In this document: piece by piece, positions 13,715 to 32,315 of the stretch
Layout: each line of letters begins with the position of its first letter
How positions within the stretch are numbered: the stretch's first letter is position 1
IMG/VR virus record: IMGVR_UViG_3300007345_000027
Span: 1-64,000 of that record
Source: a virus
DNA: 64,000 nt
Direction: 5' to 3' (one strand)
Program-made: the position numbers and the translations under genes
The notes under the pieces: model-generated
Database searches by the model: none
Seen by the model: only the letters and a program-made list of their open reading frames with translations
Told to the model about the DNA's origin: nothing

Positions 13715-14755
13715 ATGGCTGATCCAAATATTGCGAGTGCTTCGTCAATTCATGGAGGTTATGTTGCGGCATCTACAACAACAACGTTAACATCTCTCCT
13801 GTCTGTTACCGCTGATTCTAATAAGGTATATAAAATAGATACTATATACGCTTCATGTTCAAGTAGTAGTACTCTAGGTGGAGTAGATATTTGTATTAGT
13901 GATGGTGTTAATGATCGTTATATTGCAAAAAACGTACAAGTACCACCTGAAAGTACGCAAATTATTTTAAACAGGTCTAGATACTTCTATCTTCAAGAAG
14001 GAGAGAGTATAAAAGTTAGTGGTTATAACACTCATGTTATTGTCGTTTATGATGATATTTACACCGCACCTGGTGTTATTACTGATGGTTTAATATTTCA
14101 TGTCGATGCTGCTGATAGTGCTTCATACAGTGGAAGTGGCACTACTTGGACTGATATAAGTGGACAAGGCAACGATATGACATTAAATGGATCGCCTACA
14201 CATACGAGTGGATCTGGTGGTTATTTCCAATTTGATGGAACTAGTAGTGAATATGCAAATGTATCTCTTTCAGATTTCAACAGTGGTCATAATCCCATCT
14301 CAATCGAAGCGTGGGTGAATATTGATGATACTGATTCAGCTTATAGACATATTTTTGGGGCGCGTGATACTGGAAGTAATAACTTTGGTTTTTATATGTT
14401 ATTGCTTCTTGGTTCTAATGTATATAAAATGGAAGCTAGATTAGAAACAACAACTACTACTGATATTGTTTATAATCTTGGTTCGCACTGGAATTCTTGG
14501 CGTCAAATAGTGTTCACGTGGGATGCTGATGGTGATAATGCAATTAGACTTTATATAAATGGATCGCTTATATCGACTGGTTCGACAAATACTAATTCAT
14601 TTGGAACTGCAGCTGATTTTACGGTTGCTAAAACTAGTGGTGATGCCTTTCCTACTCAAATGAAGGGATCTAAATTTTTAGTATATACTAAAGCATTGTC
14701 TGCTAACGAAGTTCTAAATAATTATAATTACTATAAAGATGAATTTGGACTGTGA
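13715..14755 (+). CDS. adaptor-like N-domain fused to LamG/ConA-like lectin domain
   Basis: DA..SY.GSGTTW.D.SG.GN, FDG, SIEAWVN, LYING, Y.KALS..EV..NY motifs. Confidence 0.85.
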   Translation: MADPNIASASSIHGGYVAASTTTTLTSLLSVTADSNKVYKIDTIYASCSSSSTLGGVDICISDGVNDRYIAKNVQVPPESTQIILNRSRYFYLQEGESIKVSGYNTHVIVVYDDIYTAPGVITDGLIFHVDAADSASYSGSGTTWTDISGQGNDMTLNGSPTHTSGSGGYFQFDGTSSEYANVSLSDFNSGHNPISIEAWVNIDDTDSAYRHIFGARDTGSNNFGFYMLLLLGSNVYKMEARLETTTTTDIVYNLGSHWNSWRQIVFTWDADGDNAIRLYINGSLISTGSTNTNSFGTAADFTVAKTSGDAFPTQMKGSKFLVYTKALSANEVLNNYNYYKDEFGL

Positions 14756-14816: not shown

Positions 14817-15179
14817 ATGGCAAATCCAAGTTTAACAAAATCTGGACTCGTTATATTGGGTAAGCATGTTTCAGGATCTGTTACTACATCATTATCATCT
14901 ATTTTGACGAATAGTGCATCCTCAGATAAAGTATTTAAAATAAATTCAATTTACGCTGCAAATATTTCTACTGGAACGGATGCATGGATATCTGTTTCTA
15001 TAAACGATGGATCAAATGATCGTTATCTTGCATATAGAATATATGTTCCTACTTCATCTACACAAATTATTTTAGATAAAGATTCATATTTATATCTTTT
15101 AGAGGGGCATTCTATAAAAGTACAAGCAAGTAGTAGCTCAATTCTTGAAGTAACTATCGGATACGAGGAAATCTACTAA
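14817..15179 (+). CDS. small (120 aa) virion adaptor-like protein
   Basis: Clear paralogue of the 13715 N-terminus (KV.KI..IYA, DRY.A, STQIIL, YL.EG.SIKV). Confidence 0.7.
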   Translation: MANPSLTKSGLVILGKHVSGSVTTSLSSILTNSASSDKVFKINSIYAANISTGTDAWISVSINDGSNDRYLAYRIYVPTSSTQIILDKDSYLYLLEGHSIKVQASSSSILEVTIGYEEIY

Positions 15180-16942
15180 TGTCTATTAATAGTAGCAGTT
15201 TATTGACTGGAACGGTAAGGAAAGCCGCAATTCCTAGTGGTATGGTAAGTCAAAATGAATATCTTCGGAAAAAGGTTAGTGCAGATCTAGCATCTTCATC
15301 TCTTTCCGCAGTTACTGTGAATAGATATTTCAATCCAGTTGTTACTGGTCGAACAGCTTGGTATGATGTTCACGTTAGCCCCGATGGAACTAAAATGTTC
15401 TTGGCTACTAGTTCAGATTACATTAGACAATATTCATTATCAACACCTTTCGATCCAAGTTCAGCATCATATGTTCGTGAATGGTCTCATGTACAATATG
15501 AAGGTAATTCATATGGGTTTGATATTTCACCTGATGGTCAATATTTGATTCTGTGTGGACATGATAAAGATGGTATAATTTTATTTAATATGTCAACTCC
15601 GTGGGATTTATCAACAATATCTTACGGTGCCATTCCATATAAAAAATATGATAATTTAGCAACTGCAACTGGAGTATCAGATGCTTCTACATACTCATTT
15701 GAATTTAATAATGATGGAACTAAAGTTTATTTTGTTGCCCCGAATGATAGAGTAGCTCAACGTACTTTGTCTACTGCATACGATATAAGTACAGCAGGGG
15801 GTGTAACTTATTACACTATGTCAACAAGTCCACTGAATAGAACTGCTAGATCTATAAGATGGAAACCTGACGGCACAAAGTTTTGGATTTTGTGTGATGG
15901 ATATAATGATTTATTTGAATTCTCAGTTTCAACTGCATGGGATGTGTCATCAACTGTTACTGAGGGTAATAGTGTTGATCTTGGGACTTGGGAGACAGGT
16001 CCATATGATTTTCAGTTTTATAATAGTGGATCTAATCTATTAGTTCTTGGAATGACGGGAGATGTATTTGATAGATTTAGTTTAAGTACTGCTTATGATA
16101 TTAGTAGTACTTTAACTCATCTTGGAACAACAAGTGCAGTTGATTCAAATCCAACTGGATTTGATTTCAATTCTGATGGTACAGTAATTGCCTGGTGTGG
16201 TTATGGAATGGATGGAATTTATATTGGTGAATTATCAACACCTTATGATATTACTAGTATGGGCTCTAATTATGCTAAGTATGATCTGAATCATTACAGA
16301 CAAAGTTCTGGGAATAATTCTTACTATGCTTATACCATAGCGTGTGTTAGATGGCAATCTGATGATATTTTATGGGTTGGTGACCTTTATACAACTGGTG
16401 ACTATGATAGAATTTTTAGAATGAAATATGCTGGAAAAGAATCTACACATGTTGGTAATGAAAGATATGGATTAATAGCAGCATCTTTGTTTACAAATAA
16501 TCAGAGTGCTGATACTCCACTTGGTTGCCGTTATAGTTACGATGGAACAAAGTTGTGGGCTATTGATAATAATATTGCATATCAGTATACGGTTGATCCT
16601 CCGTGGTATGGACTAAGAACAATAGAAGGTGATACTACTTATAATTATGATGGTTCAAGCATTGCATTAGATGATAATGCTAATGTTGAAGGCAGTACAA
16701 ATGGTATTGCATGGTCTGAAGATGGACGATACTTATTTACGGCTGGACATAGCACTGATGAAATACAACAATATAAGACTAGTGTCCCCTGGAGATTAAC
16801 TGGAGTTAGTTTAACATTTATGCAATCTTTTAAGGTAACGCAACAAGAAACTACTCTCAGAGGAATTCACGTTCGTGGGAGAAATATATATTTCATAGGA
16901 TCTAGTTCAAATAAAGTTTATTGGTGCCCAATTCCATATTAA
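15179..16942 (+). CDS. beta-propeller repeat protein (putative receptor-binding head)
   Basis: Many repeats of F..DGTK......D...Q..LST.(W/Y)D.S. Confidence 0.75.
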   Translation: MSINSSSLLTGTVRKAAIPSGMVSQNEYLRKKVSADLASSSLSAVTVNRYFNPVVTGRTAWYDVHVSPDGTKMFLATSSDYIRQYSLSTPFDPSSASYVREWSHVQYEGNSYGFDISPDGQYLILCGHDKDGIILFNMSTPWDLSTISYGAIPYKKYDNLATATGVSDASTYSFEFNNDGTKVYFVAPNDRVAQRTLSTAYDISTAGGVTYYTMSTSPLNRTARSIRWKPDGTKFWILCDGYNDLFEFSVSTAWDVSSTVTEGNSVDLGTWETGPYDFQFYNSGSNLLVLGMTGDVFDRFSLSTAYDISSTLTHLGTTSAVDSNPTGFDFNSDGTVIAWCGYGMDGIYIGELSTPYDITSMGSNYAKYDLNHYRQSSGNNSYYAYTIACVRWQSDDILWVGDLYTTGDYDRIFRMKYAGKESTHVGNERYGLIAASLFTNNQSADTPLGCRYSYDGTKLWAIDNNIAYQYTVDPPWYGLRTIEGDTTYNYDGSSIALDDNANVEGSTNGIAWSEDGRYLFTAGHSTDEIQQYKTSVPWRLTGVSLTFMQSFKVTQQETTLRGIHVRGRNIYFIGSSSNKVYWCPIPY

Positions 16943-16998: not shown

Positions 16999-17997
16999 AT
17001 GAGTGAAGAAAATTTTGTAAAGATTGCCTTAGAAAATGGTGGATCTATACACCCACTGATTATTCCTTCAGAAGATCTTAAAGGACCAGCACTAACTAAC
17101 CCATCAATTTATAATGATAATGGAAAAATCATTGTAAATCTTAGAAATATTAATTATACATTGTATCATTCTGAATTGAATAAGTATGAACATCATTGGG
17201 GACCATTAGTTTATATTCATCCAGAAAACGATTTACGTCTTCGCACTAAAAATATTATGTGTGAAATGACAGATGATATGTCTATTAAATATTATCATCA
17301 TATTGATACTTCAGATTTTCCTGATAAAGAATTATGGGAATTTGTTGGATTGGAAGATGCTCGGATTATGAGGTGGGATGGTAAACTTTATATTTGTGGT
17401 GTAAGAAGAGATACCACTTATAATGGTCAAGGACGCATGGAGTTGTCTGAGATTGAGTTTACTGAAAATGGTGTTAAAGAATTAAAACAATATAGAATTC
17501 CAGTTCCTGGTGACGATCAGGGTGACAAGACTTCTTATTGTGAAAAAAACTGGATGCCTGTCCTAGACATGCCGTTTCATTTTATTAAGTGGACTAATGG
17601 AACGGAAGTAGTTAAGTATAATATGGAAACAAATAAAACTGAAAGAGTTGCTCTCTCAGAATGGCAGGATTTGGGATGTATTGATTTGCGTGGTGGATCG
17701 CAAGTTTTAAAATTGGATGATCAAAGACGTTTCTGTTTGAATCATGAGACATTCCTATATCAAAGTCCTGCAGGAAGAAAGGATGGAACATACAGGCATA
17801 GATTTGTTGTATGGGATAAAGACTGGAAGATTACTAAAGTATCAAAAAGATTTTCTTTCTTAGGTGGTTCTATTGAATTTGCAGTTGGAATGTGTGAGTA
17901 CGGTGATGATTACTTGATGACATTTGGATTCCAGGATAATGCTGCATATTTGTTGAGAGTTCCCAAGCAAGTCGTTAAAAATTACATTTTTGAATAA
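16999..17997 (+). CDS. five-bladed beta-propeller glycosidase/glycosyltransferase-like protein (GH43/GH130/GT91-like fold)
   Basis: NPSI, GLEDAR, EKNWMP, LRGGS, IEFAVG, FG.QD motifs. Confidence 0.65.
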   Translation: MSEENFVKIALENGGSIHPLIIPSEDLKGPALTNPSIYNDNGKIIVNLRNINYTLYHSELNKYEHHWGPLVYIHPENDLRLRTKNIMCEMTDDMSIKYYHHIDTSDFPDKELWEFVGLEDARIMRWDGKLYICGVRRDTTYNGQGRMELSEIEFTENGVKELKQYRIPVPGDDQGDKTSYCEKNWMPVLDMPFHFIKWTNGTEVVKYNMETNKTERVALSEWQDLGCIDLRGGSQVLKLDDQRRFCLNHETFLYQSPAGRKDGTYRHRFVVWDKDWKITKVSKRFSFLGGSIEFAVGMCEYGDDYLMTFGFQDNAAYLLRVPKQVVKNYIFE

Positions 17998-18773
17998 TGA
18001 AAATCGCTATATGTATTTCTGGTGCTGTCAGGTATCCAGAATTTGCTGTTCGTAGTATTGAGAATATAACTAAAAATTATGAAGATCTAAAACTTTTTAT
18101 TCATACTTGGAAGATATATGATCGTGAAGATTTTACGACAACGATACAGGGTTTAGAGTTAAAGGAAAAACAAAACATTGTAGAAACTGATCTTGGTATT
18201 ATTGATCAAAATCAATACAAGTATGAGACTTTACTCATTGAAGATTATGAAAGTAAAAAACATCATTTTCAAAAAATATATGATTGTTTAGATACCAATC
18301 CCTTTATACCAGATACATGTATTAAACCAAGGCATGATATTGGTTACATAAGTATGTTGTACTCTATTTGGAAAAGTAATCAATTAAAAAAAGATTATGA
18401 GAATGAAAACAATATTGTTTTTGATAGAGTTATACGGATGAGATTTGATAGTGATTTTGAAGGTAAAGAATTGGATTTGAAAAAGTTACCAGATTGTATT
18501 AATATTCCAAAAGGTGAAGATTGGTGTGGTGGAGTTAATGATCAATTTGCATTAGGTACATCACAATTGATGGACATATATTCTGATTTATATAATAATC
18601 TCACTAATATGGGTACCATTGATTATCATCCAGAATCTATTCTTCGTGATTATTTGAACAGTATGCAAATAGAACTTAATAGATTTCCTTTCAATGTTAT
18701 TATCAATAACAAAAAAGATTTTAGGAGATACTGGTATGGTGAACATTATTCCGCAGAAACTCACGTTTACTAA
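17997..18773 (+). CDS. putative glycosyltransferase-like protein
   Basis: MKIAICISG..R, FIHTW, K..YE..N...FD.VIR.RFD, ND.FA.G, HPE motifs recalled from glycan-cluster proteins. Confidence 0.55.
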   Translation: MKIAICISGAVRYPEFAVRSIENITKNYEDLKLFIHTWKIYDREDFTTTIQGLELKEKQNIVETDLGIIDQNQYKYETLLIEDYESKKHHFQKIYDCLDTNPFIPDTCIKPRHDIGYISMLYSIWKSNQLKKDYENENNIVFDRVIRMRFDSDFEGKELDLKKLPDCINIPKGEDWCGGVNDQFALGTSQLMDIYSDLYNNLTNMGTIDYHPESILRDYLNSMQIELNRFPFNVIINNKKDFRRYWYGEHYSAETHVY

Positions 18774-19645
18774 TGAAAATTTTATACGTCTATAACTTTG
18801 CATACCCAGAATATCAGGCAGATACTGTTTATCATGGATTAATTGATAGTGGATTTGATGTATATGAGACTCATTATCCTTCTTATATGATTAAAAATAG
18901 TTCTGATCTATCTAAATTATATGGAAAAGGATTTACTATGTTTGGAAAACTTGATTATGTTCCAAACGTAGAATCTCCAGAAATAATAGTTGAAAAAATA
19001 CGTTCTAAGTTTTATGATATTATTATATACGGATGTGTATACACACATGAGTCATTTCCAAATAGGAGATGTTTAGATTATCTTGATATTGTTAGAAAAT
19101 ACTATTCTAAAGATAAAGTTCATTTTATTGATGGATCAGATAATTCTTGGAATTATTCTCACGCTTTTGGAATATTTCCTTATGGAATAATATGGAAGAG
19201 TCAATTAGAAAATATAGGAGCAGGAAATCCCATAAGTTTTGGTATACCTGAGTCACAACTAATTAAACATACTCCTAAAAAAGAAAAAGTATTTGCTGAC
19301 ATAATTCCTGGAAAAAAAGAAACGTATGTTTATACTACTGAAGAATCATATTATAGGGATTATGCAATATCTTATTATGGAATAACTTGGAAAAAAAGTC
19401 AATGGAATTGTATGAGGCATCTTGAAATACTTGCCAATAAGTGTGTACCATATTTTCCAGATATTGATGAATGTCCTGCATTTGTGATGTTAGATTATCC
19501 TAAAGAGATATTCAGAGAGGTTAATAAATATGCTAGAAAAGGAGAAATTCATCCAGAATATAATTCTTTAAATGAATATCTTTTTTCCCATCTAAAAAAC
19601 AATTTAACAACAAAACAAATTGTGAAAAAAATTATAAATTATTAA
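18773..19645 (+). CDS. putative glycosyltransferase (GT-B-like C-terminus)
   Basis: WNCMRHLEILANKCVPYF resembles a GT-B nucleotide-sugar binding segment; cluster context. Confidence 0.55.
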   Translation: MKILYVYNFAYPEYQADTVYHGLIDSGFDVYETHYPSYMIKNSSDLSKLYGKGFTMFGKLDYVPNVESPEIIVEKIRSKFYDIIIYGCVYTHESFPNRRCLDYLDIVRKYYSKDKVHFIDGSDNSWNYSHAFGIFPYGIIWKSQLENIGAGNPISFGIPESQLIKHTPKKEKVFADIIPGKKETYVYTTEESYYRDYAISYYGITWKKSQWNCMRHLEILANKCVPYFPDIDECPAFVMLDYPKEIFREVNKYARKGEIHPEYNSLNEYLFSHLKNNLTTKQIVKKIINY

Positions 19646-19649
19646 CTAA

Positions 19650-20282
19650 ATGAACATATTAATAACTCCAGGAAATACTGCAACACATTACTTATTACGA
19701 TGGTTGGGAAAAGGACCAACATTAGATGGATCAACTTATAGCGTTCATAGTAGATTTAAAAAAGAAGGATTGCCTATAGAATATTCTAATAATTATATAA
19801 AATATAAGAATGGACATAAAATTCATTATTTAATGTGTAATCCTTATGACTATATTTTAGCTTCCTTCCGCAGAGGATTTCCTAGTGAAACATGGGTTCA
19901 TTGGAGAGAATGGTGTTGTGGCGATCCAACTTATTTTAAGGTTGGTAATACAATAACCCTTAAAGAATACTTACTAAATCCTTATGATGCGGTTCAATAT
20001 AAATCTCACTTAACGGGTTATGTTGAAAATCCCAATAGTGAATATGAATTTTTATTCACCAAGTATGAGTCTTTGGGTGATATTAAAGTTCAAGAAGAGA
20101 TTAGAAATTATTGGGGAGTCCCTAAAAACCATCCTAAACTTAATTTTAAGGAAAGAAAAACAAGTTGGGAAAAAGAAACAGAAGAAATAAAACAATTGTT
20201 GGAACAAAAATTGGGAGAGGAATATAAATGGTTTACTAATCTTCCTGACTATTTTAAACTAAAACCTGGAGAAGTATTATGA
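19650..20282 (+). CDS. sulfotransferase-fold protein (putative)
   Basis: PGNTATHYL (5'-PSB-like), Y..CNPYD...S (3'-PB-like), KYESL. Confidence 0.45.
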   Translation: MNILITPGNTATHYLLRWLGKGPTLDGSTYSVHSRFKKEGLPIEYSNNYIKYKNGHKIHYLMCNPYDYILASFRRGFPSETWVHWREWCCGDPTYFKVGNTITLKEYLLNPYDAVQYKSHLTGYVENPNSEYEFLFTKYESLGDIKVQEEIRNYWGVPKNHPKLNFKERKTSWEKETEEIKQLLEQKLGEEYKWFTNLPDYFKLKPGEVL

Positions 20283-20923
20283 AATGGAAAAAAGATCTTG
20301 TTTGTGATATCAGAACTTTTACTGAATATGATGATTTAGATTATGAGCAAAATGATTTTTTTAAAAATTATGTAAGATCTGATAATTGTAAAGAAGTAAC
20401 TGAATGTAATAGATCAAATCTTTTAGAACAATTTTTAAAAGTAAAAGATCATGCTAAAGCAATTCTTGAGATTGGTATTGCTAGAAATGATGAAGAATCA
20501 TTTGTTCATGTATTAACTTCAAATAAAAGACATGAGACTATATACGTTGGTCTTGATCTTGAAGATAGGTCTTTTATAAGGGATCCAGATAATAACATTC
20601 ATACCATTCAGAACAATAGTTCATATATTGATGAAAATGTTGGTATGTTTGACCAGTTTTGGGGAATTAAAAAATTTGATTTCATTTTTATTGATGGATG
20701 GCATAGTATTAATCAAGTATTGACTGATTGGGAATATACTAAATTGTTAGCACCGAATGGAATAGTTGGTTTACATGACACAACGTGTCATCCAGGTCCA
20801 AATAAATTTATTAATAATTTGGACAAAACTAGATGGGATGTTATTGAAAATGCATGTCCTCAAGATTGGGGAATTGGATTTGCTAGAAAAAAGAGATACA
20901 ATAAGTTTATTGAGGTAAAGTGA
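20279..20923 (+). CDS. class I SAM-dependent methyltransferase (Methyltransf_24-like)
   Basis: ILEIGI, FDFIFIDGWHS, L..NG.V..HD motifs. Confidence 0.8.
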   Translation: MKWKKDLVCDIRTFTEYDDLDYEQNDFFKNYVRSDNCKEVTECNRSNLLEQFLKVKDHAKAILEIGIARNDEESFVHVLTSNKRHETIYVGLDLEDRSFIRDPDNNIHTIQNNSSYIDENVGMFDQFWGIKKFDFIFIDGWHSINQVLTDWEYTKLLAPNGIVGLHDTTCHPGPNKFINNLDKTRWDVIENACPQDWGIGFARKKRYNKFIEVK

Positions 20924-21646
20924 ATGAACATTTTAATACCAATGGCGGGTGAAGGAACTAGATTTCCTAGAGATACTTACAAAATACCAAAACCTTTAAT
21001 TGATATACACGGTGTTCCAATGATACAAAGAGCTATTGAGTCTCTTGGTATGAATGGTACATATCATTTTGTAATCAGAAAGGATAGTTATTATGATCAG
21101 GTTTGCACATTACTTCACAACATTCTTCCCGATGCAAAAATAATCAGTGTAGAAGAAACAACCGAAGGTCCTGCATCTAGTTGTCTTTTATTTAAAGATT
21201 ATATTAATAATGAGGATGAACTTGTTATTGCCAATTGTGATCAAATTATGTGGTGGGATTCTGATCTTTTCTTGACAACTGCTAGATATTATAAGTATGA
21301 TGGTGTTGTTGTAACTTATAGCACAACTACTCCTAAAAATAGTTATGCTAAAATTGATAAAAATGGTTTTGTTAAATTGATAAAAGAAAAGGAGGTATTG
21401 AGTGACATTTCTTTAAATGGTATTCATTACTGGAGAAAGGGTAAGTACTTTGTACAAAGTACTGAGAGTATGATAGAATGTGATGATAGAGCACCTAATG
21501 GTGAATTTTATGTTGGACCTTCTTACAATCATATGATAAAGAAGGAGTTAAAAGTTGGTATTCATCATATTCCAAATTGGCAACATAATCCAGTTGGGGT
21601 TCCAGAAGATTTAGATTCCTTTCTTATGAAATATGAAAATTACTAA
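20924..21646 (+). CDS. sugar-phosphate nucleotidyltransferase (GT-A NTP transferase family)
   Basis: IPMAGEGTRF....PKPLI, T.GPA, ANCDQ, EK..S, NGEFY, G.PEDL motifs. Confidence 0.85.
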   Translation: MNILIPMAGEGTRFPRDTYKIPKPLIDIHGVPMIQRAIESLGMNGTYHFVIRKDSYYDQVCTLLHNILPDAKIISVEETTEGPASSCLLFKDYINNEDELVIANCDQIMWWDSDLFLTTARYYKYDGVVVTYSTTTPKNSYAKIDKNGFVKLIKEKEVLSDISLNGIHYWRKGKYFVQSTESMIECDDRAPNGEFYVGPSYNHMIKKELKVGIHHIPNWQHNPVGVPEDLDSFLMKYENY

Positions 21647-21959
21647 ACTTTCCGATTACACTAGAGGGTGGATCATTGGTGATTTTGAACCCTCTATTTT
21701 TAGAACAAAAGATTTTGAAGTGGCAGTTTTAAATCATAAAAAGGGTGAAGAGTGGCCTGCACATTATCATAAAAAGGGTATAGAATATAATGTTCTAGTT
21801 TCTGGAAAAATGATAATTCAAAATAAAGAAATAAACAGTGGTGATGTATTCGTACTAGATAGATATGAAGTTGCAGATCCAGTGTTTTTGGAAGACTGCA
21901 CAGTAGTATGTGTAAAAACACCATCTATACCATCAGACAAATTTGAGGTTAAATTATGA
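21633..21959 (+). CDS. cupin-domain protein
   Basis: GW.IGDF.P, H.H....E.N....G, GD.F motifs. Confidence 0.8.
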   Translation: MKITKLSDYTRGWIIGDFEPSIFRTKDFEVAVLNHKKGEEWPAHYHKKGIEYNVLVSGKMIIQNKEINSGDVFVLDRYEVADPVFLEDCTVVCVKTPSIPSDKFEVKL

Positions 21960-22634
21960 AATTCAATCAAGTACTTTACAATAGTTTCACATCTCCAACT
22001 GATTTATGTCATATTGGTGAAAAATATAAAACAGACAAATCTTCATTAGTATATGAAATGGGGCGTCATTCCTATACTCCTTTTTATAATTTTTTATTTT
22101 CTAATCTTAGACATAAAGACATTGTGTTTGGTGAGATTGGTATATATAAAAATGCATCTATGAAGATGTGGAGAGAGTATTTTTCGCAGGCTACTCTATA
22201 TGGTTGGGATTGTAAATTGGAACACTGTACAGAAACTCGCTATCAATATGATTTTGTCCAACTTGCTAAAAATGATAATCTTCATAACGTTCATTATGAT
22301 TATATAAATGTTAGGGATGAACAATCAATTCTTGAAGCATTTGAAAAAACAGGTACTAAATTTGATATTATTATAGACGATGCCAGCCATGAGTTTTGGG
22401 ATCAGGTAAAAGTAATTTCAAATGTTCATAAGTATTTAAATCCTGGAGGAATTCTTATAGTTGAAGACGTTGACTACGCAATCCAATCATATGCAAATTT
22501 TCTTGAACAATATAATAATGATAAGTATTATTGTAATATTACTCAAGTAAAGACATATGGTTCTAATAAAACATATGGATTTGCTGGTGATGAGATATTG
22601 GTTTTTATAAAAAATGAGGTTAAAGTATGAAATT
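21944..22634 (+). repeat. 20-bp near-identical direct repeat flanking the methyltransferase gene (21944-21963, 22615-22634)
   Basis: tgaggttaaattatgaaatt vs tgaggttaaagtatgaaatt (19/20 identical). Confidence 0.8.
21956..22630 (+). CDS. SAM-dependent (sugar O-)methyltransferase
   Basis: TDK...HSY..FY, EIGI...S..MW.EYF, FDIIIDDASH, L.PGGI..VED motifs. Confidence 0.8.
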   Translation: MKFNQVLYNSFTSPTDLCHIGEKYKTDKSSLVYEMGRHSYTPFYNFLFSNLRHKDIVFGEIGIYKNASMKMWREYFSQATLYGWDCKLEHCTETRYQYDFVQLAKNDNLHNVHYDYINVRDEQSILEAFEKTGTKFDIIIDDASHEFWDQVKVISNVHKYLNPGGILIVEDVDYAIQSYANFLEQYNNDKYYCNITQVKTYGSNKTYGFAGDEILVFIKNEVKV

Positions 22635-23865
22635 TTTTAGAGAATTAACAGAACAAGAAAAAAATCGTTGTGTTGTTGCTACATTTTACATCGAAACATA
22701 TGAAAATATAGGCAACTTGCGAGATGCTGCTTGGGCACTTGCAATTGGACAAAGTGTGGGTAATCCAAAAGTTCGTAATCGTTGGGAAAGTGATGATCTT
22801 TTTGAACTTGCATCATGCGTCATTTACGACGATGAAGAAAAATTAACTAACATGACTTCTGGTGAAGTAAAGATTGGTTTCCCTAAAGTGAATACTGATT
22901 GGGAAGGTGATGGTATTTCTCATCTGATGTGTCAGTTAATGGGTGGACAACTTGATATTGATGTCTTCAAAACATGTAGACTCAGAAAACTTGATTTTCC
23001 TGCTGATGTTGAAGCACAGTTTTTGGGACCTAAGTATGGTATTGATGGTATCCGTAGGTTTGTTAATCGTTACGATAAACCACTTTCTGGTGCTATTGTT
23101 AAACCAAAAACTGGAATCTCTCCACAAACTCTTTCGGAGATGGTTAAAGAACTTCTCGATGGTGGAGTAGATTTTATTAAAGAAGATGAGATTCTTTCCA
23201 ATCCATCTTTTTGCCGTCTTGAAGATCGTGTAGAACTTATTTCAAATCTTGTTAATGAATGTGGTAGGGGAGTAATTTACTGTTTCTGCATTAATGGTGA
23301 TCACCATACTATCCTTGATCGTGCAAAGTTTGTTGCAAATAATGGTGGTAATGGTATTCACATTAATTTCTGGAGTGGACTTGGTGTTTACAATTCCGTG
23401 AGGAAGATGGATCTTCCAATGTTTGTTCATTATCAGAAGAGTGGAGATAAGATTCTGACTGATAAGCGTCATAACTTTGGTATCGATTGGAGTGTTCTTT
23501 GTGACCTTGCAGGTCTCTGTGGTGTTGATACTATCCATGCTGGTATGTGGGGTGGATATTTGAGTGATGATGAAGCAGAACTGCATACCGTGATGGATAC
23601 TTTGCATCATAGAAATGTCCTACCAGCACTCAGTTGTGGTATGCATCCAGGTATCGTCAACACTACTGCTGAGAAGTTTGGAACTGATTTCCTAGCAAAC
23701 TGTGGTGGTGCAGTTCATGGACACCCTGGTGGCACTCTCTCTGGTGCTTTAGCAATGCGACAAGCGATTGATAAGAATCCTGGAGAGGAATTCCGTGCTG
23801 CTATTGATAAGTGGGGATATGAAACTGGTGGTGGATCTCTTCCAGAATGGGTTTTAGAGTTTTGA
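22627..23865 (+). CDS. RuBisCO-like protein (form IV / IV-like RLP)
   Basis: IVKPKTG (K175/K177), GVDFIKEDE (K201/D203/E204), D.IHAG, LSCGMHP, GG.VHGHP.G...GA.AMRQA; loop-6 Lys334, Arg295, Asn123 and Glu60 equivalents are substituted. Confidence 0.93.
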   Translation: MKFFRELTEQEKNRCVVATFYIETYENIGNLRDAAWALAIGQSVGNPKVRNRWESDDLFELASCVIYDDEEKLTNMTSGEVKIGFPKVNTDWEGDGISHLMCQLMGGQLDIDVFKTCRLRKLDFPADVEAQFLGPKYGIDGIRRFVNRYDKPLSGAIVKPKTGISPQTLSEMVKELLDGGVDFIKEDEILSNPSFCRLEDRVELISNLVNECGRGVIYCFCINGDHHTILDRAKFVANNGGNGIHINFWSGLGVYNSVRKMDLPMFVHYQKSGDKILTDKRHNFGIDWSVLCDLAGLCGVDTIHAGMWGGYLSDDEAELHTVMDTLHHRNVLPALSCGMHPGIVNTTAEKFGTDFLANCGGAVHGHPGGTLSGALAMRQAIDKNPGEEFRAAIDKWGYETGGGSLPEWVLEF

Positions 23866-23866
23866 T

Positions 23867-24346
23867 ATGATTATCATTGCTCATAGGGGAAATGTAGATG
23901 GTCCTAATCCTGAAAGGGAAAATAGTCCAGATTACATTGATGAAGCCTTATCGATGGGATATGACGTAGAAATTGATTTGAGATCGAAAGATAAACAACT
24001 TTTTCTTGGACATGATAAACCTCAATATCCATTGAAACTTGGGTGGCTTTATAAGCATAGAGAAAGACTCTGGATTCACTGTAAAGATCGTGAATCCTTA
24101 GAGTTCTGCTCTTCTACGGTCATGAATTTACATTACTTCTATCATGAAAATGATAGGTATGCTTTAACCAGTAGGGGTATTGGGTGGGTATTAGTAGGAC
24201 AAATACCATATAATAACTCAATCATTGTTCTACCAGAGTCCATTTCTTATTACAATAAATACGAAGAAAGATACGATAGAATATTATCAACAAAAGGTAT
24301 CTGTACAGATAATTGTAATTATTATAGGAGAGAGTTGTCTGAATGA
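23867..24346 (+). CDS. glycerophosphodiester phosphodiesterase-like (PLC-like TIM barrel) protein
   Basis: IAHRGN, EN, GYDVEID, LGHD, WIHCK, GICTD motifs. Confidence 0.8.
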   Translation: MIIIAHRGNVDGPNPERENSPDYIDEALSMGYDVEIDLRSKDKQLFLGHDKPQYPLKLGWLYKHRERLWIHCKDRESLEFCSSTVMNLHYFYHENDRYALTSRGIGWVLVGQIPYNNSIIVLPESISYYNKYEERYDRILSTKGICTDNCNYYRRELSE

Positions 24347-27300
24347 AGATTTCATTAATATGTGCTTGTAAAAATAGAAATGAAGCATTAAGAGTTTCAT
24401 TAAATTCTTGGTTAAATTACTCAGAAATATCAGAAATTATTATTGTTGATTGGAAATCTGACAAACCATTAAAAAATCTAACTCAACTGGACGAAAGGAT
24501 TAAAATCATTCGTGTAGATGATGTTGAGTATTTTAATCAACCACAACCATTAAACTTGGCTGCTCAACAAGCGACTGGAGATTACATACTTAAGGTTGAT
24601 TGTGATTATATAATGAGTCCATATTATTCCTTTTTCAACAAATATAAGATTGATGAAAATTCATTTGTTAGTGGAAAATCTTCTATAAAAAGTCCAGAAT
24701 TTTATGATGAAGAGAGTGGTCTTCATAAATTTGATAAAATGAAGATGAGTGTTGAGCAAATACAAGATTATTACAATTCTTATAGTTCATACTATAGGTA
24801 TTTGACAGGTCTTCTTTTTGTTTCAAAGGAACATTTTATTAATATTGGTGGATATAACGAATCGTTTTCAGATTTTTACTCATTTGAAGATGATGAGATT
24901 TATAAAAGATTAGAGATTTATGGATTAGAGCACAAGAAATTAGATTTTGATTATCATCTAATTCACATGCCTCATCCAGACAATAAACGATTTGAAAACT
25001 TTCGTTCAACCTATGAGCAAAGAGAAATAAGAGATATTATAAGAGCAAATCTTTCTGGTTGTTATAGTGGTGATGATTTAGAATGGCAAACTGATTACGT
25101 TTTAGCAATGAAACACAATCAGATTAACCGTGCTAAAGTGGATGAAGTATCTGGAGCATACGTTAAGTGTGAAACTAAATGGATAGTTTCTTCTGAAGGT
25201 GGTCGTTATTACACAGCATCTATTGATAATAACCAACATCAACTGGATAAAAATAAATTAAAAAATCTTCCACCAGTTAATTTTATTAGTGTTGAACATT
25301 CTGAAGAGAGGAGAGAAAATTTATATAAAATATTTTCAGAGTATGGTATACTAGAAGATCATATAACTCCTCATATATTTAAAAAATATGATGATAGTGA
25401 GCATCAAATTCAAAGTGGGTACTTACATCGATTAAGTATTGGTAGTAGAGGTCCAGTAACTTCTCATTTAAAGGCCATTAAAGAATGGTTGAATGACACT
25501 GAAGAGGAATATGCTTTTTTCTGTGAAGATGATATCTCCTTAGAATCTGTAAAATATTGGGACTTTACATGGGAAGAGTTTTTTAACTCTTTACCTCCAC
25601 AATGGGAATGTGTTCAACTTTGTTTACTTAGAGAATATGAGTATGGTTTAGATATTAAATTTAAAACTAGAGAATGGAGTGATTGGTCTGGATGTGCATA
25701 CTTAATTAGTAGAAAATATGCACAAAAATTGATTGATACATATTATTATGATGATGTATTCCATCTTGATTCCAAATGTCACGATGTAGAATACAGACCA
25801 GACTGGGCTATTGTACCAGTTATTGAAACTATTATCTTTGGATTGAGTGATGAAGTTTATGTAATTCCTCTCTTTTTAGAAGATATTTCCTTTAAAGCAT
25901 CATATCAAATTGACGGTGAAGATGATAATGTAAATGTTCACCATCATAATTCACACAATATTGTCCTTAATAAATGGAAAGAAATGGCATTTAAATTGAA
26001 TCAAAGTAAAGAGATACCAAACAAAATAAAATTTGTAAACTTTCCTAGCGTTTACTATATAAGTTTAGAGGAAAGTGTTGAACGGAGAAATAAACTTAAT
26101 AAACAATTTTTTAGTTGTGGTGTAGAAAAAACTGTTGGTGTAATTTCCAAGAGATTTTCTGAATCTGATGATAAATTAGAAGGAGAGCAGTTACATATAC
26201 TTGATGATGGTACAAAGGGATGTGTAGTATCTCATATCAAGATGATTAAAAAGTGGTATGATGAAACTGATGAAGAGTATGCATTCTTTTGTGAAGATGA
26301 TCTAAGCCTTGAGACTGTTAATGATTGGAATTTTTCTTGGACAGAATTTATTCAAAGTCTTCCAGAAGATGCTGAATGTGTTCAACTCTGCTGTGTACGA
26401 GATGGTCAGGAAGAAGTGAGATTGCGTGATAGATCAATGTATGATTGGTCTGTAACCGCATATATTTTAACCAGAGGGTATGCTAAAAAAATAATTGATC
26501 ATTATTTTGATAATAATACTTATACTTTAAATATTCCAAACTCCAATTTTTATCCAATGCCAGAAAATGTAATTTTCTATGGACTTGGTAAAGTTTATTC
26601 TATAAATCTTTTTGTTGAAGATCAAAATCATCCTTCTACTTTTTATGGGAAAGAGGGATTATCTGATAAAAACAAAGCACATCATGTTGAAACATATAAA
26701 TTTGTCACAGATTGGTGGAAAAATAACAATGTTTCACTTGGCGCACTGCTTTCTGTAACTTCCGAAAAAGATACTGAAATTGTAGAAGAAAAAAAAAGTA
26801 TTGGAAGGGAAAGGACTGAGTTAGAGCAGTTATTGTATGAATATTCTTTAGATTGTGAGGATGCACAAAAAAATTACAACCTTGGAATATGGTATGAAAA
26901 AGAAGGGCACACTGCACCAGCACTTTCATATTTCTTGAGAGCCGCTGAAAGGTTTGAAAGTGAAGATATGCAATATGAAGCAATAATTAAGTGCCATCAT
27001 TGTTATGATAAACAAGGAACAAGAGATGGTACAGCAGAATCATTACTGCAGCAAGCGTTATGTATAAAACCAACTAGACCAGAAGCATACTTTTTGCTTG
27101 CAAGATTCCATGAGAAAAGATCGCAGTGGAGTCACTGTTATCAATTTGCCTGCCAGGGTTTGACTTTATCTGATTTTGATTCTCCGAAAACAACACATGA
27201 TGTTGAATATCCTGGAAGACTTGGTTTACTTTTTGAAAAAGCATCTTCTGGTTGGTACTGGGGTAAAGTTGAAGAATCTAAAGAAATTTTTCTAGATTTG

Positions 27301-27387
27301 ATTGATAACTATAATCTTACTCCGTATTATCATAATCTTATTGTTGATAATTTGAAGCACTATGATATTGAACGCGAAAAAAAGTAG
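24343..27387 (+). CDS. multidomain glycosyltransferase: GT2/GT7-like + two GT25-like + TPR
   Basis: N-terminal KNR/IIVDW/KVDCD/GGYNE/EDDE; two copies of IS.E...RR..SH.K.IK.W...F.EDD; C-terminal TPR helices (P.RPEAY..LA). Confidence 0.8.
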   Translation: MKISLICACKNRNEALRVSLNSWLNYSEISEIIIVDWKSDKPLKNLTQLDERIKIIRVDDVEYFNQPQPLNLAAQQATGDYILKVDCDYIMSPYYSFFNKYKIDENSFVSGKSSIKSPEFYDEESGLHKFDKMKMSVEQIQDYYNSYSSYYRYLTGLLFVSKEHFINIGGYNESFSDFYSFEDDEIYKRLEIYGLEHKKLDFDYHLIHMPHPDNKRFENFRSTYEQREIRDIIRANLSGCYSGDDLEWQTDYVLAMKHNQINRAKVDEVSGAYVKCETKWIVSSEGGRYYTASIDNNQHQLDKNKLKNLPPVNFISVEHSEERRENLYKIFSEYGILEDHITPHIFKKYDDSEHQIQSGYLHRLSIGSRGPVTSHLKAIKEWLNDTEEEYAFFCEDDISLESVKYWDFTWEEFFNSLPPQWECVQLCLLREYEYGLDIKFKTREWSDWSGCAYLISRKYAQKLIDTYYYDDVFHLDSKCHDVEYRPDWAIVPVIETIIFGLSDEVYVIPLFLEDISFKASYQIDGEDDNVNVHHHNSHNIVLNKWKEMAFKLNQSKEIPNKIKFVNFPSVYYISLEESVERRNKLNKQFFSCGVEKTVGVISKRFSESDDKLEGEQLHILDDGTKGCVVSHIKMIKKWYDETDEEYAFFCEDDLSLETVNDWNFSWTEFIQSLPEDAECVQLCCVRDGQEEVRLRDRSMYDWSVTAYILTRGYAKKIIDHYFDNNTYTLNIPNSNFYPMPENVIFYGLGKVYSINLFVEDQNHPSTFYGKEGLSDKNKAHHVETYKFVTDWWKNNNVSLGALLSVTSEKDTEIVEEKKSIGRERTELEQLLYEYSLDCEDAQKNYNLGIWYEKEGHTAPALSYFLRAAERFESEDMQYEAIIKCHHCYDKQGTRDGTAESLLQQALCIKPTRPEAYFLLARFHEKRSQWSHCYQFACQGLTLSDFDSPKTTHDVEYPGRLGLLFEKASSGWYWGKVEESKEIFLDLIDNYNLTPYYHNLIVDNLKHYDIEREKK

Positions 27388-27389
27388 TC

Positions 27390-28211
27390 ATGCGGAATAA
27401 TAATGAGTATGAAAAACATGATATTATTCTGCAAGGAAAATATGATGAATTTACCAATGATGTAATAGAAAGTTATTTAAATATTCCTTTCGTTAATAAT
27501 ATAATTTTATCCTGTTGGGATGATGATGATTTATCATCCCTCAGAGATATTATTGATAAAAATGTAGATAGAATTGTATTAGTACCGAACAAAAAACCTA
27601 CAAATACTGGAGATGATAATGTCAATCTTCAAATTTTCTCCTCTTTCAGTGGTATAAAAAAATCTACAACAGAGTATTCTATAAAAATGCGTACCGATCA
27701 GTTATATGATCATAAGAGTATGCTCAATATGTATGAATTTTTTATAGAGAACAGAGAGAAAGATCGTATATTTGTACCAGGATTATATCCACATCTTCTA
27801 TTCCACCCCAGAGATCATCTTTTCTGGGGAAAAACTGAAGATTTATATAAATTATTTGATATACCATTAAAAACATATAACATTACAGATCTGGTAAAAA
27901 TATCAAAGAATGATCTGTGGAAATATTATCCATATTTTACTAGATCTGAAACTTATATTGGAGCACATTATTGTTCTAATTTTGATGATCGTGTCAAGAT
28001 AATGCTAATCCAACAAGATAAGTATCTATATGATAATTGTCAACAATGGGATGAATCTCATGAGATTAGCACTAATCTATCAAAAAGGTTATTTAAATCT
28101 TTCCCTAAAAAAGGTATTGATTTAAAATGGCCTAAAAAAGATCTTATGTCATACCCATATGATGATCAAAAAAATGGTTACAATGAATGTTGGCATGAGG
28201 ATGGAGTATAG
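27390..28211 (+). CDS. WavE-like lipopolysaccharide synthesis protein
   Basis: I.QG, N.N.QI.S...G, K.RTD, FH..D..F.G...DL..LF motifs. Confidence 0.7.
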   Translation: MRNNNEYEKHDIILQGKYDEFTNDVIESYLNIPFVNNIILSCWDDDDLSSLRDIIDKNVDRIVLVPNKKPTNTGDDNVNLQIFSSFSGIKKSTTEYSIKMRTDQLYDHKSMLNMYEFFIENREKDRIFVPGLYPHLLFHPRDHLFWGKTEDLYKLFDIPLKTYNITDLVKISKNDLWKYYPYFTRSETYIGAHYCSNFDDRVKIMLIQQDKYLYDNCQQWDESHEISTNLSKRLFKSFPKKGIDLKWPKKDLMSYPYDDQKNGYNECWHEDGV

Positions 28212-31236: not shown

Positions 31237-31399
31237 TACGACAAGAGCTAAACGTCTTGTAAAATTGCTTGAAAGACTTATCAAGCAAGATCATCTTTAT
31301 GATGAAGAAAGGATTGTAGAAATGAAAAAAGAACTTTCCAATCTTAAAGAACAAATTTCCGAAATTGAAAAACAAAATTACAAAGGATTTGGTAAATGA
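31229..31399 (+). CDS. small coiled-coil hypothetical protein
   Basis: ORF ending KGFGK, overlapping the thyX start. Confidence 0.6.
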   Translation: MTDTTRAKRLVKLLERLIKQDHLYDEERIVEMKKELSNLKEQISEIEKQNYKGFGK

Positions 31400-32034
31400 C
31401 CGTAAAACTGATTAGTGTAACTCCAGATGCAGAAGAAACTATGGCATATGTTGCCAGAGTTTCTAATCCTGCAAATCAAGAAAACGAAAAATATGCAGGA
31501 CTTTTGAAATATTGTATTAAACATAATCACTGGAGTGTATTTGAGCAAAGTTTCATGACTCTGGAGATTGAAACTACCAGGGCAATCGCAGCTCAAATTT
31601 TGCGTCACCGTTCGTTCACATATCAAGAGTTTTCCCAGCGGTACGCTGATTCATCTCTGTTAGGTTTTGATAAGATTCCACTACCAGAACTTCGTAGGCA
31701 AGACACGAAGAATCGCCAAAATTCTATTGATGATTTGGATCCTTTTGATGTTCAGACTCTGCAACTTCAGATGCAAACTCTCTTTGATTCTTCCATGGCT
31801 TTGTACAAGCAAATGCTTGGACGTGGTGTCGCAAAGGAATGTGCAAGAAATGTGCTTCCACTCTGCGTACCAACAAAAATCTACATGTCAGGATCATGCA
31901 GGTCATGGATCCATTATATAACTCTGAGGTCTGCAAACGGCACTCAGAAAGAGCACATGGATGTAGCAAATGGATGTAAGAAGATTTTTATTGAACAGTT
32001 TCCAACAGTTGCTGAAGCACTTGAATGGGTATAA
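31396..32034 (+). CDS. thyX: FAD-dependent thymidylate synthase
   Basis: H.S.FE, RHRSFTYQEFSQRY ThyX motif, E.AR.VLP. Confidence 0.95.
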   Translation: MTVKLISVTPDAEETMAYVARVSNPANQENEKYAGLLKYCIKHNHWSVFEQSFMTLEIETTRAIAAQILRHRSFTYQEFSQRYADSSLLGFDKIPLPELRRQDTKNRQNSIDDLDPFDVQTLQLQMQTLFDSSMALYKQMLGRGVAKECARNVLPLCVPTKIYMSGSCRSWIHYITLRSANGTQKEHMDVANGCKKIFIEQFPTVAEALEWV

Positions 32035-32037
32035 ATA
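32030..32037 (+). promoter_or_regulatory. T4-type late promoter TATAAATA
   Basis: Exact consensus upstream of 32061. Confidence 0.6.
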
Positions 32038-32060
32038 TTTTCGTATTGAAATTATAAAGA

Positions 32061-32306
32061 ATGGCAACTTATCCTGTAAAACATAAAGAAACTGGTGAAA
32101 CCAAAGAAGTGAAGATGAGTGTTCACGAATGGGATCAGTGGAGAGAAGACAACCCAGAATGGGAAAGATACTATACTCCATACAACGCACCAGGATTTGG
32201 TGAAGTTGGTGAATGGCAGAGTAAATTAGTTGCTAAAAATCCAGGATGGAATGATGTCCTTGGAAGAGCAGCATCTATGCCTGGCGCAAACGTAAAAAAG
32301 ATTTAG
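32061..32306 (+). CDS. conserved T4-like hypothetical protein upstream of phoH
   Basis: M.TYPV....TGE and GW..VL motifs; typical position. Confidence 0.7.
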   Translation: MATYPVKHKETGETKEVKMSVHEWDQWREDNPEWERYYTPYNAPGFGEVGEWQSKLVAKNPGWNDVLGRAASMPGANVKKI

Positions 32307-32315
32307 TATTCTAGT

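Follow-up and report, generated by a model that had tools for sequence, protein, structure and literature searches.

We analyzed the first 64,000 nt (positions 1–64,000; hereafter, the window) of the IMG/VR virus record IMGVR_UViG_3300007345_000027, which encompasses a gene for a 412-aa RuBisCO-like protein (RLP; 22627–23865, plus strand) embedded in an island of glycan-related genes. The gene is real and intact, it is widely conserved, and the clade to which its product belongs, the 'form IV-like' clade of phages and candidate phyla radiation (CPR) bacteria, has been published without a function. With slightly more confidence than doubt, we propose that this RLP is an enolizing isomerase or epimerase that, jointly with a nucleotidyltransferase (NT), a cupin, and either a GDPD-like or a HAD-family enzyme, feeds a nucleotide-activated sugar into a surface glycan. 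The anabolic, nucleotide-sugar character of this predicted role is well supported by genomic context and gene fusions.

The RLP is full-length, as an earlier note on this DNA had stated, and matches the Pfam RuBisCO_large domain (PF00016) with 146.8 bits against a cut-off of 30.1 (E-value 1.1e-42). Among PDB sequences, it matches 99 RuBisCOs and RLPs at E ≤ 1e-3, with the form III RbcL 2cwx at the top (3.5e-40), and, in sequence distance, lies about as far from form III RuBisCOs as from the solved RLPs. It scores below the cut-off of every named NCBIfam model for a RuBisCO or RLP family, namely, rubisco_III (201 bits, cut-off 497), PRK04208 (190, cut-off 438), the MtnW models TIGR03332 (121.9, cut-off 513.6) and NF007095 (162.9, cut-off 409), and the OiaX model NF042437 (156.4, cut-off 700). 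A small subunit, RbcS, which the earlier note had not seen in the window, was found nowhere in the 97-kb record.

We mapped the active-site residues using a MAFFT alignment with the form I RbcL of an Azospirillum genome (L130), cross-checked against the HMMER alignment to 2cwx. In RuBisCO numbering, with the RLP residues in parentheses, K175 (K159), K177 (K161), K201 (K185), D203 (D187), E204 (E188), H327 (H304), S379 (S336), G381 (G338), and G403/G404 (G360/G361) are all retained, as the earlier note had them. The replacements that it listed were likewise recovered in the alignment with the form I protein, that is, E60G (G41), N123G (G107), R295K (K271), and K334Y (Y311), and we additionally detected T65N, H298D (D274), and G380C. 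H294, which the note had counted among the conserved residues, is replaced as well (Q270): the reading was off by two positions, and the histidine of the 'VHYQK' motif (H268) aligns with H292. The replacements of K334 and H294 were read in both the MAFFT alignment with form I and the HMMER alignment with form III.

In every clade member examined, whether from a phage, a Legionella, or a DPANN archaeon, this pattern is essentially identical: the carbamate lysine, both metal ligands, K175, K177, and H327 are retained by nearly all clade sequences mapped, and the replaced positions are themselves conserved inside the clade. Other proteobacterial RLPs that we sampled keep E60, T65, N123, and H294, and mostly R295 and K334 too. 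According to RuBisCO chemistry, the retained residues are those required for Mg2+ binding and for reversible proton transfer on a 2,3-enediolate, whereas CO2 addition and binding of the second phosphate depend on the lost ones; in RuBisCO, E60, T65, and N123 come from the partner subunit and cap the P1 phosphate. The median dN/dS of the RLP against its close viral homologs is 0.07, an approximate value given that dS exceeds 1, and that of the NT is 0.08; judging by these ratios, the RLP is under strong purifying selection. A bona fide RuBisCO of forms I–III was rejected given the replacement of K334, E60, N123, T65, and H294, the sub-cut-off scores, and the lack of RbcS in the record, and an MtnW-type enolase acting on 2,3-diketo-5-methylthiopentyl-1-phosphate (DK-MTP-1-P) was rejected given NCBIfam scores far under the cut-offs. 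The RLP is thus predicted to be a non-carboxylating member of the superfamily.

The earlier note placed the RLP in a four-gene cassette at 20924–24346. This interval holds five open reading frames (ORFs), all on the plus strand: the 240-aa NT of the sugar-1-phosphate type (20924–21646; Pfam NTP_transferase, 1.8e-8, above the cut-off); a small, single-domain cupin of 108 aa with an HxHx4E metal-type motif (21633–21959; a weak Pfam Cupin_7 match along with an AlphaFold2 (AF2) model and Foldseek matches); a class I methyltransferase between the cupin and the RLP (21956–22630; Pfam Methyltransf_31, 6.4e-8), which interrupts the four-gene set and went unmentioned in the note; the RLP itself; and a 159-aa protein, X159, apparently a miniature GDPD-like phosphodiesterase (23867–24346; N-terminal HRG..EN..ExD..GHD motif).

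Scanning IMG/VR, we identified RLP relatives on 237 viral contigs and analyzed the best 80 of these contigs, with RLPs 97–56% identical to that of the window; a parallel scan of cellular genomes, one per prokaryotic species, yielded 46 loci. Linkage was counted with hidden Markov models (HMMs) built from the window proteins in the 90 loci where the RLP is flanked by at least 3 kb on each side. The NT was found near the RLP in 88 of these 90 loci, X159 in 76, and the cupin in 63, so that the linkage postulated in the earlier note holds for these three partners. The gene orders differ (NT-cupin-RLP-X159, X159-NT-RLP, and X159-RLP-MT-NT-cupin, where MT is a methyltransferase), which argues for selection on the linkage rather than inherited synteny. 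The intervening methyltransferase was detected in only 6 of the 80 viral loci, and between the cupin and the RLP in only a few related loci (L012, L013, L027), which marks it as a lineage-specific insertion.

The RLP clade is not confined to viruses. At E ≤ 1e-10, the RLP has matches in 2,643 protein clusters, and the cellular carriers include a complete Pelagibacter chromosome, many SAR11 single-cell genomes, a Verrucomicrobiae chromosome, three Legionella species, a Tatlockia, a Francisellaceae genome, Turneriella, Azospirillum oleiclasticum, and a Sphingobacteriales genome, along with Beckwithbacteria, Saccharibacteria, and Woese-, Nano-, Pace-, and Micrarchaeota of the CPR and DPANN groups. 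A tblastn search with the RLP against 50,697 phage records returned no match, indicating that no cultured phage carries it. With the clade HMM, members score at least 412 bits and 21 other RLPs and RuBisCOs at most 188 bits, and the NT, cupin, and X159 families occur beside none of these 21. In a rooted FastTree phylogeny, which addressed the placement in the superfamily raised by the earlier note, the clade is monophyletic with a support of 0.94, apart from the other RLPs sampled, and includes the Beckwithbacteria sequence (L092).

Protein fusions tie the same families together more tightly. The RLP, NT, and cupin are joined on single polypeptides of 813 and 817 aa (P0125 and P0126), with the RLP at ~11–390, the NT at 398–633, and the cupin at 710–811, and an NT-RLP fusion of 637 aa was also identified (P0139). 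On the NT side, we detected a CmcI/Methyltransf_24-NT fusion of 450 aa whose NT domain is 54% identical to that of the window (P0134), an NT-GDPD fusion in a Micrarchaeota locus (L100), many HAD-NT fusions, NT-NT tandems, and NT-GT2 fusions (GT, glycosyltransferase). In two loci (L072 and L073), a HAD-NT fusion lies directly upstream of cupin-RLP. Together, these fusions imply that the RLP, the NT, the cupin, the methyltransferase, and a phosphoryl-transfer enzyme belong to one pathway. HAD-NT occurs near the RLP in four cases, too few to show that HAD substitutes for the miniature GDPD.

The partner proteins themselves fit such a pathway. The NT matches PF00483 with 34.7 bits (cut-off 21.2), and the profile of its family matches, over the full length, the structural-genomics entry 4evw of the PDB, titled 'nucleoside-diphosphate-sugar pyrophosphorylase' (2.6e-35), which provides this NT subfamily with a structure. 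The next matches are GMPP, RmlA, GlmU, and HddC structures (1e-11 to 1e-8, over 170–227 positions), whereas IspD and LicC align at the N-terminus only; given the alignment beyond the N-terminus with the former group, the NT looks like a sugar-1-phosphate nucleotidyltransferase, and we predict this activity for it. The 108-aa protein scores 20.4 with Pfam Cupin_7, below the cut-off of 27, and the metal-type motif is conserved in the family alignment, with H44 and E51 invariant and H35 and H46 nearly so. Its AF2 model (pLDDT 97.1) has 141 Foldseek matches in the PDB at E ≤ 1e-3, and all the top ones listed adopt the cupin fold, the nearest being small metal cupins, including the archaeal phosphomannose isomerase 7zvm/7zvy and KdgF. 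By the modeled fold, then, this protein is a member of the cupin superfamily.

X159 has no direct Pfam match and, with 159 aa, is well short of the ~240 aa of a full GDPD (beta/alpha)8 barrel. Nevertheless, H6, R7, N19, E35, D37, H49, H71, and K73 are invariant in its family, the family HMM reaches GDPD proteins of 230–270 aa recognized by Pfam in DPANN loci, and the profile matches the GDPD structure 3i10 (4.5e-5). The Foldseek top matches of its AF2 model (pLDDT 94) are all GDPD, albeit weak (E 1.5e-3, TM 0.64). We consider it reasonable, by motif, profile, and model, to view X159 as a truncated GDPD-like enzyme, for which the label 'phosphodiesterase' used in the earlier note is an acceptable name with the qualification that the protein is truncated and lacks a Pfam match of its own.

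In the pathway that we envisage, the RLP would use its carbamylated-lysine/Mg2+ center (K185, D187, E188) together with K159 and K161 to enolize a phosphorylated alpha-hydroxy-ketose and would then reprotonate the enediolate, acting as an epimerase or as an isomerase that shifts the carbonyl between positions 1,2 or 1,3. It would share one pathway, and probably one complex, with the NT, the cupin, and the phosphoryl-transfer enzyme. The cupin, of the phosphosugar-isomerase/KdgF type, might perform a second metal-dependent tautomerization or isomerization, the miniature GDPD, or HAD in some lineages, might trim or transfer phosphate, and the NT would couple the sugar phosphate to a nucleoside monophosphate (NMP). 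The nucleotide-activated product would be methylated in some lineages and attached by the island transferases to a surface glycan, either of the host envelope or of the virion. In this scheme, we infer the type of reaction, the order of the steps, the substrate, and the glycan that is targeted, whereas the fold, the kept and replaced residues, the purifying selection, the linkage, the fusions, and the glycan surroundings are observed. The earlier note had likewise suggested an anabolic RLP that contributes to a nucleoside diphosphate (NDP)- or NMP-sugar, and this suggestion gains from the predicted non-carboxylating and non-MtnW-type character of the protein, the conserved linkage, and the fusions, while the isomerase, epimerase, or branching step that it assigned to the RLP stays at the level of prediction.

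The surroundings of the module in phages and cells alike are rich in glycan genes, extending what the earlier note had recognized in the window, where the sugar-activating and sugar-transferring neighbors include the NT and the GT2/GT25 and WavE proteins. GT2/GT25/WavE-type transferases are co-located with the cassette in 11–14 viral loci, and viral loci also feature short-chain dehydrogenase/reductase (SDR) epimerases, GT11, DegT, and FkbM methyltransferases. The SAR11 module is accompanied by GT9, GT17, and GT61, with housekeeping genes such as pheT and lepA adjacent, and the Francisellaceae module by Wzz, GT2, and GtrA. In the Legionellaceae, the module consists of the RLP and the NT only, beside LicD, a Wzy-like membrane protein, and a CMD-family protein; these loci come from the cultivable Legionella nautarum (L120), Tatlockia sp. 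(L121), L. maceachernii (L122), and L. drozanskii (L125), and in all four, LicD (1e-42) divergently adjoins RLP+NT and the miniature GDPD is absent.

The NT subfamily of the window is also present without an RLP in the cultured cyanophages S-CAM9, S-PRM1, S-SM2, and S-SKS1. HAD-NT fusions of 461 and 456 aa are encoded in S-CAM9 (L160, 5341–6726), S-PRM1 (L162, 4341–5726), and a Pelagibacter chromosome (L084, 2758–4128), and S-SM2 carries a 522-aa NT-NT tandem (L161, 6001–7569) among genes for a transketolase-like protein, a class II aldolase, a SIS isomerase, and a kinase. In S-SKS1, the NT is fused to RibB, the synthase of 3,4-dihydroxy-2-butanone 4-phosphate (DHBP; domain match 5e-65). Examining viral contigs with RibB homologs, we detected the NT family within 8 kb of RibB in 8 of 8, fused to it in 3, and accompanied by a full RLP cassette in 2. 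We know of no substrate of RibB other than ribulose-5-phosphate (Ru5P). The RibB, transketolase-like, and aldolase partners indicate that the NT family pairs with ketose-phosphate enzymes that use enediol chemistry, and, by analogy, these recurrent partners lend indirect support to a substrate derived from the pentose-phosphate pathway, in line with the guess of the earlier note.

Beyond this pairing, the NT and RibB belong to a larger cassette, in which the NT, fused or adjacent to RibB, is followed by a ~320-aa unknown protein, a 118-aa HAD-like protein, and a 269-aa protein of the transaldolase/FSA family. This arrangement is conserved in S-SKS1 (L159, 6001–9539) and in all 8 viral contigs with RibB (L163–L170), and has a full RLP cassette immediately upstream in two of these contigs (L163 and L164).

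The carrier genomes constrain the substrate further. Neither the complete Pelagibacter chromosome nor the Verrucomicrobiae chromosome that carry the module encodes an isomerase of the IF-2B family (MtnA or ribose-1,5-bisphosphate isomerase), and no convincing phosphoribulokinase (PRK) was found in either. Among the five carriers examined, a strong PRK match was obtained in Azospirillum only, where it lies beside the form I RuBisCO of that genome. Given these carriers, ribulose-1,5-bisphosphate (RuBP) and methylthioribulose-1-phosphate are unlikely as general substrates of the RLP. Most likely, the substrate would derive from a universal pentose-phosphate metabolite such as Ru5P or xylulose-5-phosphate, or from a derivative of one.

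Several observations weigh against the proposed pathway. The Legionellaceae loci, with RLP+NT beside LicD, would be better explained by a phospho-donor of the CDP-alcohol type than by a glycosyl donor; some lineages dispense with the cupin and the miniature GDPD, so that the four-step scheme is not universal; glycan islands are gene-dense, and some of the co-location, such as that of SDR and GT genes, is unspecific; and the title of 4evw, the closest structure to the NT, names no substrate or function. A more elaborate version of the proposal, which we advance tentatively, places the RuBisCO-fold enzyme in a nucleotide-sugar 'metabolon' of RLP, NT, and cupin, perhaps acting on a ketose that is already linked to a nucleotide, with an undescribed sugar or phospho-sugar of SAR11, Legionellales, CPR, and DPANN envelopes, copied by cyanophages, as the product. 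The suggestion of a nucleotide-linked ketose stems from the invariant replacement of E60, T65, and N123, two of them by glycine.

The Legionellaceae are also the starting point of a different interpretation, in which the product donates a phospho-ketose or phospho-polyol in the manner of a CDP-alcohol (cf. LicC/LicD, CDP-ribitol, and CDP-xylulose), and this substituent becomes phosphodiester-linked through the GDPD-like protein or LicD. This would accommodate LicD beside RLP+NT in all four Legionellaceae loci, from which the miniature GDPD is absent, the phosphodiesterase fold of the accessory X159, and the NT-RibB fusions, which imply that a primary phosphate ester, for instance DHBP, is activated. 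Against it, the NT aligns over 170–220 residues with sugar-1-phosphate nucleotidyltransferases and with IspD/LicC at the N-terminus only, LicD was detected in no locus other than the four Legionellaceae ones and is not a general partner, and the GtrA/GT2 context in Francisellaceae is typical of lipid-linked glycosyl transfer. We consider a phospho-donor unlikely on balance, yet worth keeping in view alongside the nucleotide-activated sugar.

A variant salvage pathway for sulfur compounds or 5-deoxypentoses, in which the RLP acts on methylthio- or deoxy-ribulose-1-phosphate as in the methylthioadenosine-isoprenoid shunt of Rhodospirillum rubrum or in MtnW/MtnX/MtnD, is improbable. It does have precedent in the combination of enzymes: the DeepYkr RLP of R. 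rubrum works with a cupin methylsulfurylase, and MtnW, MtnX, and MtnD are an RLP, a phosphatase, and a cupin dioxygenase, so both RLP+cupin and RLP+phosphatase+cupin are known pairings; moreover, the glycines of the P1 phosphate site are kept and the residues of the P2 site are changed, as would be expected for a 1-phosphate substrate. However, no mtn or other salvage genes were identified beside the RLP in the window, where the earlier note had also seen none, or in the related loci examined, and the RLP is constantly accompanied by an NT in glycan loci. Furthermore, the MtnW models give 122–163 bits against cut-offs of 409–514, the Pelagibacter and Verrucomicrobiae carriers lack an MtnA-type isomerase of the IF-2B family to make the ketose-1-phosphate, and the nearest structures to the cupin are of the phosphosugar isomerase and KdgF types.

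Still harder to sustain is the view of the phage RLP as an auxiliary metabolic gene that drains or diverts host RuBP and Ru5P during infection, or fixes CO2. The probable host is a picocyanobacterium, rich in RuBP, and cyanophages redirect carbon flow (work cited in PMC6389311). Nonetheless, the protein lacks K334, E60, N123, H294, and T65, no RbcS was found in the record, the RLP is linked or fused to the NT (88 of the 90 full-flank loci), and heterotrophs in which no convincing PRK was found carry this protein and module too. The draw-down of RuBP that the earlier note had raised as a further option is therefore weakened by the Pelagibacter and Verrucomicrobiae chromosomes, which carry the module without a convincing PRK or IF-2B-type isomerase. 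Finally, a catalytically dead scaffold or regulatory protein kept in glycan loci, as the loss of several canonical residues might suggest, is barely credible for a family in which the carbamate lysine, the metal ligands, K175, K177, and H327 persist in nearly every clade sequence mapped, the replaced positions are conserved within the clade, and dN/dS is 0.07.

The source record, with a CheckV completeness estimate of ~46%, belongs to a T4-like cyanomyovirus, as indicated by two of its proteins: PhoH is 78.6% identical to the PhoH of Prochlorococcus phages P-SSM2 and P-SSM5 and Synechococcus phage S-SRM01, and a tail protein has its closest counterparts in cyanomyoviruses. The host is probably a picocyanobacterium. 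Genes for tail fibers, the baseplate hub, and the tail flank the RLP island on both sides. A chimeric assembly, named in the earlier note as a possible explanation, was ruled out by these flanking tail-fiber and baseplate genes, the P-SSM2-like PhoH, and the 237 viral contigs with an RLP relative.

The island itself spans 16999–28211 and is densely packed on one strand, with many genes that abut or overlap by a few bases. Upstream of the NT, all on the plus strand, are genes for a 332-aa unknown protein, a DUF7796-like protein (17997–18773; Pfam DUF7796, 7e-11), a 290-aa protein with a GT-like lead, and a 210-aa unknown protein (16999–20282 for the group, assessed by Pfam and atlas structure neighbors), followed by a class I SAM methyltransferase of the Methyltransf_24 type (20279–20923; PF13578, 9.2e-7) whose gene abuts that of the NT. 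The atlas lead for the 290-aa protein is to Glyco_trans_1_2 at 0.93, and the structure neighbors of the DUF7796-like protein are viral capsular-polysaccharide or GT-like proteins. The DUF7796-like family is the next commonest viral companion of the RLP, near it in 38 viral loci, and a methyltransferase of the Methyltransf_24 type is near the RLP in 32 of the 80. Downstream of X159, at 24343–28211 on the plus strand, are a 1014-aa protein with GT2 and GT25 regions and a WavE-family protein (Pfam Glycos_transf_2, Glyco_transf_7C, Glyco_transf_25, and WavE).

Elsewhere in the window, the region after the island (31396–33772) encodes ThyX (1.8e-45), PhoH (2.3e-45), and a DUF6445 protein, typical auxiliary genes of cyanomyoviruses. 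Between the fiber genes and the glycan island are a 346-aa protein with a Laminin_G_3 (concanavalin-like lectin) domain (13715–14755) and a 587-aa protein with weak beta-propeller/lactonase-like matches (15179–16942), both of which may be receptor-binding or glycan-binding parts. A 1553-aa protein at 5458–10119 matches the virion structural protein phrog_5838 of PHROG (6e-185), and a very long ORF of 2904 aa occupies 52144–60858.

In the RLP tree, rooted with the sampled RLPs as a thinly sampled outgroup, the cellular lineages are basal and the viral sequences form a nested crown, with one SAR11 group among them. Tentatively, this topology suggests that phages acquired the RLP gene from cellular glycan loci and exchanged it later. 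Two short contigs binned with cellular genomes carry a complete phage-type cassette, namely, a 4.6-kb contig assigned to Methanobacteriota (L082; RLP 86% identical to that of the window) and a 3.3-kb contig assigned to Crocinitomicaceae (L083; 67% identical). Their RLPs nest inside the viral crown, and they are probably mis-binned phage fragments.

If the proposed function is correct, no member of the RuBisCO superfamily would have been known before to serve anabolism by building a glycan, and the clade would open a new functional branch of a much-studied superfamily, with a bearing on the evolution of its active site. The clade resides in surface-glycan loci of SAR11, the most abundant heterotroph of the ocean, of Legionellales, and of ultra-small CPR and DPANN cells; given this spread, the product could be common in cell envelopes and matter for recognition by phages, and cyanophages might copy an envelope sugar to remodel the host surface or their own virions. 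With the triple fusion that occurs in nature and with Legionella carriers that can be cultivated, the hypothesis is open to direct testing.

Compared with what has been published, the clade itself is not new. From IMG/VR, about 80 phage RLPs, some from Myoviridae, have been reported to group with Beckwithbacteria, with key residues divergent in the 'form IV-like' sequences and both the function and the direction of transfer left open (Jaffe, Castelle, Dupont & Banfield 2019, Mol Biol Evol; PMC6389311). The window RLP belongs to that same clade, with its myovirus contigs and the Beckwithbacteria sequence L092, and the earlier note thus overstated its novelty. The passages searched in that article are, however, silent on the module with NT, cupin, and miniature GDPD, on the fusions, and on the occurrence in SAR11, Legionellales, Verrucomicrobia, and DPANN chromosomes, and, where the article leaves the direction of transfer open, our tree nests the viral sequences within cellular lineages. 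Literature searches on RLPs with nucleotidyltransferases and cupins, on RLPs in viral auxiliary metabolism, and on RLPs with SAR11 glycosyltransferases yielded no account of the module, of its fusions, or of how widely it occurs in cells; a search on DHBP, nucleotidyltransferase, and polysaccharide returned nothing, and one on RLP, form IV, and phage since 2019 returned unrelated work only. The additions made here are the reading of H294, R295, and H298, the triple fusion with its coordinates, the LicD adjacency in Legionellaceae, the connections to HAD-NT and NT-RibB, the lack of MtnA and PRK routes in carrier genomes, the dN/dS values, and the rooted tree.

With MtnW/YkrW, the DeepYkr isomerase of R. 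rubrum, and the OiaX decarboxylase, the window RLP shares the RuBisCO fold and the carbamylated-lysine/Mg2+ enolization core, and in all of them residues of carboxylation are lost. It differs in its scores far below the family cut-offs, in the replacement of all of E60, T65, N123, H294, R295, and K334, most of which the other proteobacterial RLPs sampled retain, and in its context of anabolic glycan genes, as opposed to salvage or catabolism; to our knowledge, every RuBisCO-like protein characterized so far acts in salvage or catabolism. A parallel in logic exists with the NDP-heptose pathway (GmhA-HldE-GmhB-HddC), the conversion of CDP-xylulose to CDP-arabinitol, and LicC/LicD, where an isomerase, a phosphatase, a nucleotidyltransferase, and a glycan transferase act in turn; HddC-type enzymes are among the PDB relatives of the window NT, and LicD adjoins the module in Legionellaceae. 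In contrast to these NDP-heptose and CDP-alditol pathways, the RLP core set comes without a kinase, a SIS isomerase, or a reductase, and we know of no precedent for an isomerase role filled by a RuBisCO-fold enzyme together with a cupin.

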